A stretch of 64,000 bases of DNA from assembly GCF_013167455.1 (NCBI RefSeq), contig NZ_CP038328.1; one strand, given 5' to 3'. Every line of letters starts with the position of its first letter. Position 1 is the first letter of the stretch. A program made the translations under genes and the position numbers. The stretch comes from Escherichia coli O157:H7. GTDB lineage: Bacteria; Pseudomonadota; Gammaproteobacteria; Enterobacterales; Enterobacteriaceae. A model generated the notes under the pieces. The model worked only from the letters and a program-made list of their open reading frames with translations. It did no database searches and was not told the DNA's origin. Positions 19,495 to 25,614 of the stretch are shown here, one piece after another.

Positions 19495-19609
19495 TTCCTT
19501 TGTCAAGACCTGTTATCGCACAATGATTCGGTTATACTGTTCGCCGTTGTCCAACAGGACCGCCTATAAAGGCCAAAAATTTTATTGTTAGCTGAGTCAG
19601 GAGATGCGG

Positions 19610-20863
19610 ATGTTAAAGCGTGAAATGAACATTGCCGATTATGATGCCGAACTGTGGCAGGCTATGGAGCAGGAAAAAGTACGTCAGGAAGAGCACATCG
19701 AACTGATCGCCTCCGAAAACTACACCAGCCCGCGCGTAATGCAGGCGCAGGGTTCTCAGCTGACCAACAAATATGCTGAAGGTTATCCGGGCAAACGCTA
19801 CTACGGTGGTTGCGAGTATGTTGATATCGTTGAACAACTGGCGATCGATCGTGCGAAAGAACTGTTCGGCGCTGACTACGCTAACGTCCAGCCGCACTCC
19901 GGCTCCCAGGCTAACTTTGCGGTCTACACCGCGCTGCTGGAACCAGGTGATACCGTTCTGGGTATGAACCTGGCGCATGGCGGTCACCTGACTCACGGTT
20001 CTCCGGTTAACTTCTCCGGTAAACTGTACAACATTGTTCCTTACGGTATTGATGCTACCGGTCATATCGACTACGCCGATCTGGAAAAACAAGCCAAAGA
20101 ACACAAACCGAAAATGATTATCGGTGGCTTCTCTGCATATTCCGGCGTGGTGGACTGGGCGAAAATGCGTGAAATCGCTGACAGCATCGGCGCTTACCTG
20201 TTCGTTGATATGGCGCACGTTGCGGGCCTGGTTGCTGCTGGCGTCTACCCGAACCCGGTTCCTCATGCTCACGTTGTTACTACCACCACTCACAAAACCC
20301 TGGCGGGTCCGCGCGGCGGTCTGATCCTGGCGAAAGGTGGTAGCGAAGAGCTGTACAAAAAACTGAACTCTGCCGTTTTCCCTGGTGGTCAGGGCGGTCC
20401 GTTGATGCACGTAATCGCCGGTAAAGCGGTTGCTCTGAAAGAAGCGATGGAGCCTGAGTTCAAAACTTACCAGCAGCAGGTCGCTAAAAACGCTAAAGCG
20501 ATGGTAGAAGTGTTCCTGGAACGCGGCTACAAAGTGGTTTCCGGCGGTACTGATAACCATCTGTTCCTGGTTGATCTGGTCGATAAAAACCTGACCGGTA
20601 AAGAAGCAGACGCCGCTCTGGGCCGTGCTAACATCACCGTCAACAAAAACAGCGTACCGAACGATCCGAAGAGCCCGTTTGTGACCTCCGGTATTCGCGT
20701 GGGTACTCCGGCAATTACGCGTCGCGGCTTCAAAGAAGTAGAAGCGAAAGAACTGGCTGGCTGGATGTGTGACGTGCTGGACAGCATCAATGATGAAGCC
20801 GTTATCGAGCGCATCAAAGGTAAAGTTCTCGACATCTGCGCACGTTACCCGGTTTACGCATAA
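19610..20863 (+). CDS. glyA: Serine hydroxymethyltransferase
   Basis: 417-aa product; AGGAG Shine-Dalgarno; sequence recognised as GlyA. Confidence 0.96.
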
Positions 20864-20925: not shown

Positions 20926-22119
20926 TCAAATCTGTCGTAACTGCGTCTCAACATACAAATAGCCAATTCCCAGCACCTGTTGTGCGCGGCTTAATTGCCC
21001 GAAGCCAATTTGCGTCGCTTTCACGCTCGGTCCTTCGTCGCGGTCGAACGGGTTAAATCCTGTCTGGCGAATAATAGTATTAAGCCAGTGCTCACCAAAG
21101 GCACAACTGCGACCGTACAACCAAATCTGATTAATATTGAGGATGTTGAGGAAGTTATACAGACTCAAACCAATGGCATTGGCAGAGCGATCAACCCAGC
21201 TGGTGATCCACGGTTCTCCACTTTGCCAGGCAGCGATTAACTGCGCTGTAGTCAGTTTTTCAGGATCAAGCTGAGTATTAACCGGTTGTGATTTTAGCCA
21301 TACCCGCGCCTGTTTTTTTAATGCACTTAACGAGGCGACGGTTTCCAGGCAGCCGTAACGTCCACAGTCGCAGACGACGCCATCCGGATTAACGATGGTG
21401 TGACCAATCTGTCCGCTACCATACAAACTGCCGCGATAAATTTGCTCGTTAATCACGAACGACGAGCCAATGCCGTAATCAACGTTGATCACGCAGAAAT
21501 CCCGTTCCTGCGAATTATTTTGCCATTTTTCCGCCAGCGCCAGCATCACGCAGTCATTATCGACCATCACCCGAATGCCCAGCTTCTCTTCCAGCAGATA
21601 CTTCACCTCAACCGGCGTTGTCCACGGCGCTTGCGGCATGGTTTGCGACACTCCAGTCACTGGATCAACCTGACCGTGGATTGCCAGCGCCAGATTGATG
21701 GTGCGGTCCGGCCACAATTTACGGTGGCGATGCCAGCATTTTTCGATTTCGGACAGCAGCGCCTGCGGCGTCGGTGCATCAATCTGTAAATACTCAAATT
21801 CACCTTTCGGACTTAAACAAGCATTAGCAACCTGACACTCAATACTGGTGGGCGTCACGTTCAGACACAGCGTCCAGTCACCTTCCGGCGCAATCAGCCA
21901 TGTACCGCTACTATGCCCGCGCGTCTGGCTTTCATCGTCGATATTCACCACCCGTTTTTCGCTTTCCAGTTCCTGCAAAATATTACTGACTGCCGGAATC
22001 GAAATTTGCGCCAGCCGGGCCAGCGTTGATTTATTGGCGCGCTTTTGCCGGTACAGCAGTTCCAGAATCACGCATTTGTTATGGTGGCGAATCTGTTGAT
22101 TGTTAATGCAGGCTCTCAT
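20926..22119 (-). CDS. yphH: ROK (NagC/XylR)-family transcriptional regulator
   Basis: About 397 aa; N-terminal HTH, ROK glycine motifs and a CxCGxxGCxE zinc motif; start may instead be 22125. Confidence 0.85.
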   Translation of the reverse strand: MRACINNQQIRHHNKCVILELLYRQKRANKSTLARLAQISIPAVSNILQELESEKRVVNIDDESQTRGHSSGTWLIAPEGDWTLCLNVTPTSIECQVANACLSPKGEFEYLQIDAPTPQALLSEIEKCWHRHRKLWPDRTINLALAIHGQVDPVTGVSQTMPQAPWTTPVEVKYLLEEKLGIRVMVDNDCVMLALAEKWQNNSQERDFCVINVDYGIGSSFVINEQIYRGSLYGSGQIGHTIVNPDGVVCDCGRYGCLETVASLSALKKQARVWLKSQPVNTQLDPEKLTTAQLIAAWQSGEPWITSWVDRSANAIGLSLYNFLNILNINQIWLYGRSCAFGEHWLNTIIRQTGFNPFDRDEGPSVKATQIGFGQLSRAQQVLGIGYLYVETQLRQI

Positions 22120-22143
22120 CTTCACTAAACCTTGTTTAGTTAA

Positions 22144-25100
22144 TTGCGTGATTATTCCGCGAAAACATTGCCAGATTGTTCAATACACTGCCACAAATCT
22201 TTTAATTCAGTATGTCTTGTTAATATTGAGGGCACCATGACTCCAGTAAAAGTGTGGCAAGAGCGCGTTGAGATCCCGACCTATGAAACCGGGCCGCAGG
22301 ATATACATCCCATGTTCCTGGAAAATCGCGTTTATCAGGGATCGTCCGGCGCGGTTTATCCCTACGGCGTGACCGATACGCTGAGCGAGCAGAAAACCCT
22401 GAAATCCTGGCAGGCGGTGTGGCTGGAAAACGACTACATCAAAGTGATGATCCTGCCGGAATTGGGCGGTCGGGTGCATCGCGCATGGGATAAAGTGAAA
22501 CAGCGCGATTTTGTCTATCACAATGAAGTCATTAAACCTGCGCTGGTGGGGCTGCTGGGACCGTGGATCTCCGGCGGGATTGAGTTTAACTGGCCGCAAC
22601 ACCATCGCCCGACCACCTTTATGCCCGTTGATTTCACCCTCGAAGCCCATGAAGACGGCGCACAGACGGTGTGGGTAGGCGAAACGGAGCCGATGCATGG
22701 TTTACAGGTGATGACAGGTTTCACCCTGCGCCCTGACCGGGCGGCGCTGGAAATCGCCAGCCGCGTCTATAACGGCAACGCCACGCCGCGTCATTTCTTG
22801 TGGTGGGCCAACCCGGCAGTGAAAGGGGGTGAAGGGCATCAGAGCGTCTTTCCGCCGGATGTAACGGCGGTGTTTGATCACGGCAAACGGGCCGTCTCCG
22901 CTTTCCCTATCGCCACCGGCACTTACTACAAAGTGGACTACTCCGCTGGAGTGGACATTTCTCGCTATAAAAATGTGCCCGTTCCAACCTCATATATGGC
23001 TGAAAAATCACAGTACGATTTTGTTGGCGCGTGGTGTCACGATGAAGATGGCGGTTTGCTACACGTTGCCAACCACCATATTGCGCCAGGTAAAAAGCAG
23101 TGGAGCTGGGGACACAGTGAATTTGGCCAGGCGTGGGATAAGAGCCTAACTGATAATAACGGCCCGTATATCGAACTGATGACCGGTATTTTTGCCGATA
23201 ACCAGCCTGATTTTACCCGGCTTGATGCTTACGAAGAGAAGCGTTTTGAGCAGTTTTTCCTGCCTTACCATTCTCTGGGCATGGTGCAAAACGCCTCCCG
23301 CGATGCGGTAATCAAACTCCAGCGTAGTGAGCGGGGGATTGAGTGGGGGCTGTATGCCATCTCTCCGTTGAACGGATACCGCCTGGCGATCCGCGAAATC
23401 GGCAAATGCGACGCGTTGCTCGATGATGCCGTGGCCCTGACACCAGCGACCGCCATCCAGGGCGTGTTACACGGTATCAATCCTGAAAGACTGACCATTG
23501 AGCTCTCTGATGCCGACGGCAATATTGTACTGAGTTATCAGGAACATCAGCCGCAAGAGTTGCCGTTGCCGGACGTCGCCAAAGCGCCACTGTCAGCACA
23601 AGACATTACCAGTACAGATGAAGCCTGGTTTATCGGTCAGCATCTGGAGCAATATCATCACGCCAGCCGTTCACCGTTCGATTACTACCTGCGCGGCGTG
23701 GCGCTGGATCCGCTGGATTACCGCTGTAATCTGGCGCTGGCGATGCTGGAGTATAACCGCGCAGATTTCCCGCAAGCGGTGGCGTATGCCACTCAGGCTC
23801 TGAAACGCGCACATGCGCTGAACAAAAATCCGCAGTGCGGACAGGCGAGTTTGATTCGCGCCAGTGCTTACGAACGTCAGGGACAATATCAACAAGCCGA
23901 AGAGGATTTCTGGCGTGCGGTCTGGAGCGGCAACAGTAAAGCCGGAGGCTATTATGGTCTGGCACGACTGGCGGCGCGTAATGGTAACTTCGACGCGGGT
24001 CTGGATTTTTGCCAACAAAGTCTTCGCGCCTGCCCAATCAATCAGGAAGTGCTTTGCCTGCATAATCTGCTGCTGGTGTTAAGTGGTCGTCAGGACAACG
24101 CGCGTTTGCAGCGCGAGAAACTGCTGCGCGATTATCCGCTGAACGCCACTCTGTGGTGCCTGAACTGGTTCGATGGTCGTAGCGAATCATCTCTCGCGCA
24201 GTGGCGCGGTCTGTGTCAGGGACGCGACGTTAACGCCCTGATGACCGCCGGGCAACTGATTAACTGGGGAATGCCCACCCTCGCGGCAGAGATGCTGAAT
24301 GCACTGGACTGCCAGCGCACGCTGCCGCTTTACCTGCAAGCCAGCTTGCTGCCGAAAGCCGAACGTGGCGAACTGGTCGCAAAAGCCATTGATGTCTTCC
24401 CGCAGTTTGTCCGTTTCCCGAATACGCTGGAAGAAGTGGCGGCGCTGGAGAGTATTGAAGAGTGCTGGTTTGCTCGCCATTTACTGGCCTGCTTCTACTA
24501 CAACAAACGTAGCTACAACGAAGCCATTGCCTTATGGCAACGTTGCGTAGAGATGTCGCCGGAGTTTGCCGACGGCTGGCGCGGGTTAGCGATCCATGCG
24601 TGGAATAAGCAACACGATTATGAGCTGGCCGCGCGTTATCTTGATAATGCTTATCAGCTTGCGCCGCAGGATGCACGTCTGCTTTTCGAACGGGATTTGC
24701 TTGATAAGCTAAGTGGAACCACACCGGAGAAACGACTGGCGCGTCTGGAAAATAATCTGGAAATTGCGCTGAAACGCGACGACATGACCGCAGAACTGCT
24801 CAATTTGTGGCATCTCACGGGGCAGGCAGACAAAGCGGCGGACATTCTCGCCACGCGCAAATTCCACCCGTGGGAAGGCGGGGAAGGGAAGGTCACCAGT
24901 CAGTTTATCCTCAACCAGTTATTACGCGCCTGGCAGCATCTTGATGCCAGAGAGCCGCAGCAGGCCAGCGAACTGCTTCATGCCGCGCTGCATTATCCGG
25001 AGAATTTAAGCGAAGGCCGTTTACCGGGGCAAACTGATAACGACATCTGGTTCTGGCAGGCGATATGCGCCAAAGCCCAGGGCGATGAAACTGAAGCGAC

Positions 25101-25518
25101 GCGCTGTTTACATCTGGCGGCGACCGGCGATCGCACCATTAACATCCACAGCTATTACAACGATCAGCCGGTTGATTACCTCTTCTGGCAAGGAATGGCG
25201 CTGCGATTACTGGGCGAACAACACACCGCACAGCAACTGTTTAGTGAAATGAAACAGTGGGCGCAAGAGATGGCGAAAACCAGTATCGAAGCGGATTTCT
25301 TTGCCGTCTCGCAGCCTGACTTGTTGTCGCTGTATGGCGATTTACAACAGCAGCATAAAGAAAAATGCCTGATGGTGGCGATGCTGGCGGCCGCGGGATT
25401 AGGCGAGATTGCGCAATACGAATCTGCTCGCGCTGAATTGACGGCGATTAATCCGGCCTGGCCGAAAGCGGCATTATTCACCACCGTGATGCCTTTTATT
25501 TTTAACTACGTTCACTAA
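22144..25518 (+). CDS. yphG: Large protein of unknown function (DUF5107-like N-terminus, TPR-like C-terminus)
   Basis: 1124-aa longest ORF; an internal ATG at 22237 with a GAGGG Shine-Dalgarno is the better-supported start. Confidence 0.8.
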   Translation: MRDYSAKTLPDCSIHCHKSFNSVCLVNIEGTMTPVKVWQERVEIPTYETGPQDIHPMFLENRVYQGSSGAVYPYGVTDTLSEQKTLKSWQAVWLENDYIKVMILPELGGRVHRAWDKVKQRDFVYHNEVIKPALVGLLGPWISGGIEFNWPQHHRPTTFMPVDFTLEAHEDGAQTVWVGETEPMHGLQVMTGFTLRPDRAALEIASRVYNGNATPRHFLWWANPAVKGGEGHQSVFPPDVTAVFDHGKRAVSAFPIATGTYYKVDYSAGVDISRYKNVPVPTSYMAEKSQYDFVGAWCHDEDGGLLHVANHHIAPGKKQWSWGHSEFGQAWDKSLTDNNGPYIELMTGIFADNQPDFTRLDAYEEKRFEQFFLPYHSLGMVQNASRDAVIKLQRSERGIEWGLYAISPLNGYRLAIREIGKCDALLDDAVALTPATAIQGVLHGINPERLTIELSDADGNIVLSYQEHQPQELPLPDVAKAPLSAQDITSTDEAWFIGQHLEQYHHASRSPFDYYLRGVALDPLDYRCNLALAMLEYNRADFPQAVAYATQALKRAHALNKNPQCGQASLIRASAYERQGQYQQAEEDFWRAVWSGNSKAGGYYGLARLAARNGNFDAGLDFCQQSLRACPINQEVLCLHNLLLVLSGRQDNARLQREKLLRDYPLNATLWCLNWFDGRSESSLAQWRGLCQGRDVNALMTAGQLINWGMPTLAAEMLNALDCQRTLPLYLQASLLPKAERGELVAKAIDVFPQFVRFPNTLEEVAALESIEECWFARHLLACFYYNKRSYNEAIALWQRCVEMSPEFADGWRGLAIHAWNKQHDYELAARYLDNAYQLAPQDARLLFERDLLDKLSGTTPEKRLARLENNLEIALKRDDMTAELLNLWHLTGQADKAADILATRKFHPWEGGEGKVTSQFILNQLLRAWQHLDAREPQQASELLHAALHYPENLSEGRLPGQTDNDIWFWQAICAKAQGDETEATRCLHLAATGDRTINIHSYYNDQPVDYLFWQGMALRLLGEQHTAQQLFSEMKQWAQEMAKTSIEADFFAVSQPDLLSLYGDLQQQHKEKCLMVAMLAAAGLGEIAQYESARAELTAINPAWPKAALFTTVMPFIFNYVH

Positions 25519-25614
25519 ACCCTATTAACTGTAATATTTGAGCGGCACGCGCTGCCGCTCATCACAAAATAATTAGAATAAGCCGTTGTTAATAAAAACC
25601 CTACAGGAGGCTCT

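Follow-up and report, generated by a model that had tools for sequence, protein, structure and literature searches.

Translation starts of the divergent genes yphH and yphG of Escherichia coli O157:H7 and a conserved candidate operator of YphH between them

Introduction

At the divergent nagE–nagB region, the regulator NagC acts via two operators and a DNA loop. The operators of NagC and Mlc are quasi-palindromes spanning -11 to +11, and TT/AA at ±5,6 are their only invariant positions (PMC4288165). YphH is the third E. coli ROK repressor and is uncharacterised; it shares the ROK family with NagC and Mlc, whereas its linker motif is divergent (RG, not GR) and it forms a long branch of its own (PMC4288165). 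The setting is the same as for NagC and Mlc, a sugar-uptake/catabolism cluster with the regulator gene alongside.

A second familiar case concerns annotation. In the generic longest-ORF misannotation, an in-frame upstream TTG without a Shine–Dalgarno (SD) sequence stretches the ORF into intergenic DNA, and the real start is a conserved, SD-led ATG. The yphG gene, divergent from yphH, has the same arrangement.

We analysed a stretch of 64,000 nucleotides from E. coli O157:H7 (assembly GCF_013167455.1, contig NZ_CP038328.1), hereafter called the window. We are highly confident in a joint explanation of the yphH–yphG junction, in which yphG starts at ATG 22237, yphH starts at ATG 22119, the 117 bp between them are non-coding and regulatory, and a 23-bp quasi-palindrome (O1) together with the adjoining TTGCGTGA block is most likely a YphH site.

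Results and discussion

Layout of the junction

The longest ORF of yphH (20926–22125, minus strand) opens with GTG and has 399 codons for amino acids, and that of yphG (22144–25518, plus strand) opens with TTG and encodes 1124 aa. A sequence-only reading had noted that these ORFs leave a gap of only about 18–24 bp, and this is correct: the gap is 18 bp (22126–22143), or 24 bp when yphH is counted from ATG 22119. It had preferred the ATG at 22237 preceded by GAGGG, and a regulatory region of about 117 bp. This ATG (22237–22239) is in frame with the long yphG ORF, as its codon 32. The region 22120–22236 is 117 bp long, and the same gap is present in MG1655 (NC_000913.3). The conclusion on the starts holds. 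The argument that so short a gap could not accommodate two promoters does not compel in itself, because promoters may sit within the adjacent gene.

According to RefSeq/PGAP and the MG1655 annotation, yphH extends over 20926–22119 (minus strand, ATG 22119–22117, 397 aa, ROK-family NagC-like putative regulator), as the earlier reading implied, and yphG extends over 22237–25518 (plus strand, 1093 aa). The K-12 reference entries, b2550 (NP_417045.4, 397 aa) for yphH and b2549 (NP_417044.4, 1093 aa) for yphG, have the same starts with no difference. The preferred starts are thus already known, and the start ambiguity is an ordinary one because the conserved ATGs are already used in the current reference annotation. 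The gene names given by the earlier reading agree with the RefSeq labels in 5,425 of 5,426 complete E. coli genomes. The RefSeq products are a ROK family protein (yphH) and a DUF5107 domain-containing protein (yphG). The Pfam domains are ROK plus an N-terminal wHTH in YphH, and DUF5107 at residues 39–325 plus TPR repeats in YphG. K-12 and the window have the same intergenic sequence, and the intergenic length is 109–119 bp across orthologous loci from Aeromonas to E. coli.

The quasi-palindrome O1 and the adjoining block

The candidate YphH operator O1 (TTCACTAAAC-CTT-GTTTAGTTAA, 22121–22143, plus strand) abuts the yphH ATG, and its centre is located 105 bp upstream of the yphG ATG. The two arms are complementary at 9 of 10 positions (inverted repeat I4). 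O1 is directly followed by TTGCGTGA (22144–22151, plus strand), a non-coding motif that is near-invariant in the alignment of 18 intergenic regions and whose first three bases are the TTG opening the longest yphG ORF. CGTGA of this block is also retained in Photobacterium. The alignment shows O1 conserved across Enterobacterales and Aeromonas, and a position weight matrix (PWM) built from non-Escherichia sites scores O1 at 27.3, versus at most 16.1 when the 64-kb window is shuffled. The 117-bp gap holds a conserved, apparently undescribed motif resembling a regulator-binding site.

Two other readings of this DNA were rejected. Inverted repeat I1 (22066–22077 and 22142–22153) was considered as RNA pairing or a second operator, and was discarded because orthologues do not conserve the K-C-V-I encoded by its arm within yphH. 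A CRP site over TGCGTGA is unsupported, with about 6 of 22 consensus positions present in E. coli as counted by eye. Photobacterium has a better CRP-like match, CGTGA-N5-TCACA.

The yph motif is a quasi-palindrome of the same span as the NagC/Mlc operators (23 bp, -11 to +11). In contrast to the invariant TT/AA of those operators, it has TA at -6,-5 and TA at +5,+6. Therefore it is not a NagC or Mlc site, and is at most the site of another ROK regulator. The position is also different from that of NagC/Mlc sites: the strong yph site is found about 64 bp 5' of the predicted transcription start and not over the promoter, and a second copy, O2, is weak.

Further copies of the motif

The PWM applied to the 64 kb gave exactly two outstanding matches, at 22121 and 25511. 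The second strong copy, OF (TTCACTAAACCCTATTAACTGTA, 25511–25533, plus strand), is the top match in the window with a score of 31.9, and is also the sole match to the cross-species consensus at three or fewer mismatches, where 0.01 are expected. OF runs over the stop codon of yphG and is centred 93 bp upstream of the ATG (25615) of yphF, which encodes an ABC-transporter binding protein. Enterobacter BIGb0383, Enterobacter R1 and Budvicia have counterparts of OF, and in Enterobacter ENT03 and Citrobacter FP75 extra copies precede a GPH-type transporter gene. The motif thus stands at the regulator gene yphH and at potential sugar target genes (yphF and the GPH-type transporter gene), as would be required of a ROK operator.

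The weak copy O2 (TTCAGTATGTCTTGTTAATATTG, 22206–22228, plus strand; direct repeats D1 and D2) lies 85 bp from O1 and is uncertain. Its PWM score is only 4.4, within the top 2.6e-4 of window positions, and PWM matches at its place (-30 to -32 from the ATG) are in the top five in nine relatives. The O1/O2 pair resembles the operator pair used by NagC at nagE–nagB.

The 23-bp motif is probably the operator of YphH, as judged from its sequence and distribution. It is possible, if rather unlikely, that the motif is the site of another factor, or that it is conserved through its overlap with the yphH ribosome-binding region or as a leader RNA hairpin. The palindrome does overlap the yphH SD, and Photobacterium retains the motif upstream of yphG with no adjacent yphH. 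However, the copies at the yphG stop upstream of yphF and upstream of the transporter gene lie where no leftward gene starts, and an explanation purely by the yphH ribosome-binding site or leader is therefore ruled out. The half-sites also drift without compensatory changes. The cluster has no regulator gene other than yphH, and the motif lies next to yphH in 18 loci from at least nine genera.

Candidate promoter elements

The hexamer TACACT (22184–22189, plus strand) is a candidate -10 element of yphG, with a predicted transcription start near 22196. It matches TATAAT at 4 of 6 positions, including A2 and T6. At the corresponding offset of 63–68 from the O1 start, TAnnnT is found in 14 of 18 orthologous regions and CAnAnT in the other four. 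The yphF and transporter contexts show the same offset, and a -10-like hexamer of either form stands at the fixed offset from the motif in 20 of 24 contexts; the background frequency is 0.025 per position. The candidate -10 hexamer of yphF, TAGAAT (25574–25579, plus strand), has the same offset from OF as TACACT has from O1, and a yphF transcription start is predicted near 25586.

The -35 regions of both yphG and yphF are poor. In the case of yphG, the sequences GAAAAC/AAAACA at the expected spacing of 16–18 bp match TTGACA at 1–3 of 6 positions, and from this activator dependence, or a weak or cryptic promoter, would follow. A strict sigma-70 consensus scan, run together with a terminator consensus scan, reported no promoter in the yphG or yphF upstream region, TACACT included. 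For the GC-rich DNA upstream of yphF, a sigma-54 promoter was considered and rejected because the GG-to-GC spacing is wrong. The Rfam scan of 21800–25800 gave no credible match, and the folding of the putative yphG leader is not significant (z-score -0.9).

According to the mechanism proposed here, YphH would bind O1 and the adjoining TTGCGTGA upstream of the predicted yphG start, and the weak sigma-70 type -10 TACACT, at its fixed distance from O1, would drive yphG. The same operator/-10 module would precede yphF. The rigid spacing, at about -64 from the predicted start, suggests a phase-dependent contact with RNA polymerase, that is, activation or anti-activation and not simple occlusion; any assignment of the sign of regulation, positive or negative, is provisional. 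YphH may also control its own gene through O1, because O1 covers the yphH ribosome-binding region and 5' leader DNA.

Start of yphH

The yphH ATG is kept in 16 of 17 orthologous loci, and Budvicia aquatica has GTG at that position. The SD-like AAGG (22130–22133, minus strand; anti-SD duplex -3.3 kcal/mol) is replaced by GGAG in most other genera, and this CCTT/CTCC column is conserved in the intergenic alignment. The alternative GTG (22123–22125, minus strand) would add two codons and is probably not the start. A start of E. coli yphH at this GTG (399 aa, MKMRAC...), or the use of both codons, is improbable. In favour of the GTG are its frame, its occurrence in E. coli and E. albertii, and the same AAGG on its 5' side; but it is missing from all other orthologues, and the spacer from AAGG is merely about 2 nt, versus about 8 nt for ATG 22119. 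Moreover, in Enterobacter R1 a stop codon lies directly 5' of the ATG, and the ATG is the codon used by the reference annotation. The N-terminal peptide expected is (M)KMRACINNQQIR for the GTG-22125 form, and MRACINNQQIR for the ATG-22119 form.

Start of yphG

With an SD-led start defined by a complement of the 16S rRNA 3' end 4–10 nt 5' of the start codon, ATG 22237 is such a start: GAGGG (22228–22232, plus strand) precedes it with a 4-nt spacer and an anti-SD duplex of -6.1 kcal/mol. GAGGG or GGAGA is kept at this position in the alignment of 18 intergenic regions, and each of the 20 related loci compared has an ATG at the corresponding place. Among the 120 matches listed, which include Proteobacteria as well as Bacteroidales, Prevotella, Chitinophaga, Flavitalea and Treponema records, nearly all full-length homologues start with M and 0–5 residues before VKVW/VKAW...IPTYE. 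When the query includes the extension, only 88% of it is covered even by database proteins of 100% identity; therefore the matches start at the ATG. Counted by codon position, substitutions 3' of the ATG show a third-position bias (7/4/28, 9/7/36, 12/3/42, 14/7/39), and those 5' of it show no periodicity (6/4/3, 7/10/6, 9/11/5). The homologue N-termini, the broken upstream frame, the codon bias and the SD all agree with ATG 22237, the better start according to the earlier reading.

The apparent N-terminal extension (22144–22236, plus strand, 93 nt) is a non-coding 5' region that holds the candidate promoter and operator elements. Among the matches listed, no homologue aligns with it, and it has no Pfam match. 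Neither TTG 22144 (+1.0 kcal/mol) nor TTG 22168 (+0.1 kcal/mol) has an SD. TTG 22144 is replaced by TAG in Enterobacter R1, and the extension carries 1-nt indels in Enterobacter BIGb0383 and ENT03. As to the upstream frame, Enterobacter R1 and ENT03 offer no start codon in it, the BIGb0383 indel shifts it, and stop codons located 9–39 nt upstream close it in Budvicia, Rahnella, Citrobacter, Aeromonas and Photobacterium. Polymorphism within E. coli is uninformative on the frame because almost all E. coli genomes share at least 99% identity in this region.

Translation of yphG wholly or partly from TTG 22144, giving 1124 aa with a 31-residue extension and divergent promoters inside the neighbouring coding sequences, is hardly credible: the frame is open from 22144, as it is in E. 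albertii and Enterobacteriaceae RIT691, which both retain the TTG, and was deposited at 1124 aa in an older annotation (EFI89599.1), but the lack of an SD, the TAG and the frame-breaking indels, the absence of codon periodicity and of the extension in the listed homologues stand against it, and the TTG is accounted for by the invariant TTGCGTGA. We consider that yphG is translated from ATG 22237 and yphH from ATG 22119, and that the longer ORFs from TTG 22144 and GTG 22125 would have arisen by chance, because no intervening stop codon happens to occur. The 1124-aa form persists only in older deposits such as EFI89599.1 (at least one genome).

The literature on YphH, YphG and the yph operon yielded family assignments only, with no targets and no start-site data found. 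The TetRP, Cappable-seq and SMRT-Cappable-seq supplements, in a possibly incomplete form, listed neither gene and gave no coordinate within the region. Both genes are probably silent in laboratory media.

Conclusions

The start result confirms the 1124-aa yphG model as an over-extension, and the 1093-aa model is preferable for users of older deposits. The locus differs from the generic longest-ORF misannotation in one respect: the spurious TTG is itself kept in some relatives, because it is part of the regulatory motif TTGCGTGA. Start-codon conservation taken alone would therefore mislead here, which is a small lesson on method.

The candidate YphH operator and the promoter layout offer a testable handle on the regulation of the yph sugar-utilisation cluster. 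The chances are about even that an undescribed module, consisting of the TTCACTAAACnnnGTTAACTGTA consensus, the conserved TGA-containing block and a -10 element exactly 63 bp from the start of the motif, serves yphG, yphF and, in other genera, a GPH-type sugar transporter gene, and that it represents the YphH operator and regulon. If this reading is true, YphH, the last ROK transcription factor of E. coli that is still uncharacterised, would have its operator and regulon defined.

Start codons of yphH and yphG

In the mechanical ORF list, the longest yphH ORF (20926..22125, minus strand, 399 aa) starts from GTG and the longest yphG ORF (22144..25518, plus strand, 1124 aa) starts from TTG. The two are separated by only 18 bp (22126-22143), confirming the near-abutting arrangement described in the sequence-only reading, which preferred a yphG start at ATG 22237 and an intergenic region of about 117 bp. 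ATG 22237 corresponds to codon 32 in the long ORF, and the SD sequence GAGGG (22228-22232, plus strand) lies 4 nt upstream. According to RefSeq/PGAP for one O157:H7 strain and one K-12 derivative, and to the curated annotation of MG1655 (NC_000913.3), yphH starts at the ATG equivalent to 22119 (397 aa) and yphG at the ATG equivalent to 22237 (1093 aa). Thus, the preferred starts are already known as the reference annotation, and the interval between the two ATGs (22120-22236) is 117 bp in both annotation and sequence. The intergenic sequence of K-12 is identical to that of the window. The exact 1124-aa K-12 sequence is still deposited as EFI89599.1 (E. coli MS 196-1, 'tetratricopeptide repeat protein'). 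It belongs to a cluster with 18,305 members, of which 15 are listed, 13 of them with 1093 aa. A comparable longest-ORF artefact is observed at glyA (19604-19612), where the ORF list gives 419 aa from ATG 19604 (MRMLKREMN...) and RefSeq gives 417 aa from 19610 (MLKREMN...).

The 601 bases around the junction show 100% identity to an O157:H7 chromosome, and all but one of 5,426 complete E. coli genomes (5,425) match them at 95% identity or more; variation at the junction among E. coli genomes is too low to inform on the reading frame. With a 181-bp junction query, strain AR62.2 (NZ_CP189379.1) and about 15 other genomes give two separated matches or partial ones, which suggests that an insertion or a rearrangement has occurred in the intergenic region or close to it.

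Comparative tests support the start of yphG at ATG 22237. When residues 1-252 of the long form were used as the query, 100%-identical proteins covered just 88% of it, indicating that the database matches begin at this ATG. Nearly all the full-length proteins among 120 listed homologues, including records from Bacteroidales, Prevotella, Chitinophaga, Flavitalea and Treponema, begin with Met and 0-5 residues followed by the VKVW/VKAW...IPTYE block. In the short form, DUF5107 (Pfam) begins at residue 39, and a Pfam search of the 31-residue extension gave no match. Across 20 related loci from a one-genome-per-species scan, the frame upstream of the yphG ATG is not kept. Upstream start codons are lacking in Enterobacter sp. 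R1 and ENT03, and R1 has TAG at the position of TTG 22144; the frame is shifted in Enterobacter sp. BIGb0383, and stops are located 9-39 nt upstream in Budvicia, Rahnella, Citrobacter, Aeromonas and Photobacterium. In four relatives with YphG 90-95% identical, differences in the first 300 coding nt fall mainly at the third codon position (7/4/28, 9/7/36, 12/3/42 and 14/7/39). The 93 nt upstream are 75-89% identical, similar to the coding sequence, yet their pattern is non-coding, with no codon periodicity and with 1-nt indels. The SD pairing energies with the 16S rRNA 3' end are +1.0, +0.1 and -6.1 kcal/mol for TTG 22144, TTG 22168 and ATG 22237, respectively. In the accessible literature, no experimental transcription-start, ribosome-profiling or N-terminal data on yphG or yphH were found.

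The divergent layout is conserved in Enterobacterales and Aeromonas, and the ATG-to-ATG distance is kept at 109-119 bp across orthologous loci. In the intergenic alignment, TTG 22144 forms the first three bases of the nearly invariant block TTGCGTGA (22144-22151). The TTG is therefore kept in some relatives as part of a regulatory element, and not as a start codon. The putative yphG leader contains a three-codon mini-ORF (22212-22223, ATG TCT TGT TAA), out of frame with yphG and without SD; it is retained in the closest Enterobacter relatives, is absent from Cedecea, Citrobacter and Aeromonas, and is probably meaningless. Folding of this leader gave no significant structure, and an Rfam search at the yph locus found no family.

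For yphH, ATG 22119 is kept in 16 of 17 orthologous loci (GTG in Budvicia aquatica), and the N-terminus in close relatives is M-R/K-A-C-I-N-N-Q-Q. GTG 22125 is confined to E. coli and E. albertii, and in Enterobacter R1 a stop codon is located immediately upstream of the ATG. The spacing from the AAGG/GGAG SD-like sequence is about 8 nt to the ATG and only about 2 nt to the GTG. Initiation at the GTG in E. coli is unlikely but formally conceivable; the two-codon difference is of little consequence.

A conserved motif with a candidate promoter

An inverted-repeat search detected a 23-bp quasi-palindrome, O1 (TTCACTAAAC-CTT-GTTTAGTTAA, 22121-22143), adjoining the yphH ATG. The motif is conserved at every yphH-containing locus. 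A weight matrix built from non-Escherichia copies only gave exactly two outstanding matches in the 64 kb, 22121-22143 (27.3) and 25511-25533 (31.9); the top score over 20 shuffles was 16.1. The latter, OF, was also the sole match to the cross-species consensus with up to 3 mismatches (0.01 expected). OF overlaps the yphG stop codon, and its centre precedes the yphF ATG by 93 bp. Enterobacter BIGb0383, Enterobacter R1 and Budvicia have homologous copies at the equivalent position. A weak third copy, O2 (22206-22228, score 4.4), 85 bp from O1 and just before the yphG SD, is uncertain.

Further copies are located on the minus strand in Enterobacter ENT03 (L009, about 870-1010) and Citrobacter FP75 (L016, about 1010-1150), preceding a membrane-transporter gene downstream of yphH, with a -10-like hexamer at the usual offset. 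Read from its sequence, the transporter looks GPH/MelB-like, which suggests that the transporter of the regulon varies between genera. In Photobacterium, yphG is preceded at the equivalent distance by a more symmetric motif (TTACTAA-N6-TTAGTAA), with no adjacent yphH. In P. indicum (L022, 2384-2406), CGTGA and TACAAT accompany this motif at their usual offsets, with no adjacent ROK gene. The P. indicum yphG homologue lies downstream of co-directional genes (482-2167); their translations, inspected by eye, resemble an N-acylglucosamine-2-epimerase-like protein and a sugar isomerase of the cupin type.

In every context, a -10-like hexamer is found at offset 63-68 (62-67 in one), counted from the motif's first base. 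Four orthologues have CAnAnT and most contexts have TAnnnT, for which the background frequency in the compared regions is 0.025 per position. The candidates are TACACT (22184-22189) for yphG and TAGAAT (25574-25579) for yphF. Because the spacing is fixed across non-orthologous promoters, the pairing of motif and hexamer argues for a functional module of operator and promoter. Relative to the predicted transcription start, which for yphG is near 22196, the centre of the motif would be located about 64 bp upstream. The candidate promoters have poor -35 regions, and a strict consensus scan of the yphG and yphF upstream regions reported no promoter; these features fit a promoter that is weak or depends on a factor, and a cluster silent in laboratory conditions.

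Between OF and TAGAAT, a perfect GC-rich hairpin, GAGCGGCAcgcgcTGCCGCTC, is present at 25540-25562. In Enterobacter BIGb0383 and R1 the stem (GAGCGGC/GCCGCTC) is retained and the loops differ; in Budvicia the stem is missing. With no T-run after the stem, it is not a classic terminator. Just upstream of OF, a terminator-like hairpin with a T-run (25470-25503) in the last yphG codons may be fortuitous (one match versus 0.7 expected by chance).

YphH as the candidate regulator

YphH, with ROK and N-terminal winged-helix domains (Pfam), is the sole regulator encoded in the yph cluster. It has been described as E. coli's third ROK repressor, uncharacterised, with an atypical linker and a long branch of its own (PMC4288165). 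The NagC and Mlc sites are quasi-palindromes from -11 to +11 with invariant TT/AA at +/-5,6 (PMC4288165). The yph motif shares this geometry, whereas it has TA/TA at +/-5,6; therefore it is a site of neither NagC nor Mlc, and would represent a distinct specificity. We infer that YphH binds the 23-bp motif as its operator. YphH might repress as a roadblock on its own leader or by O1-O2 looping, or might activate from about -64. No paper on YphH targets or yph regulation was found. The candidate YphH operator-promoter module is the only element here that may merit follow-up; if the motif is the YphH operator, O1 and OF would define a yphH-yphG-yphF(EDCB) regulon.
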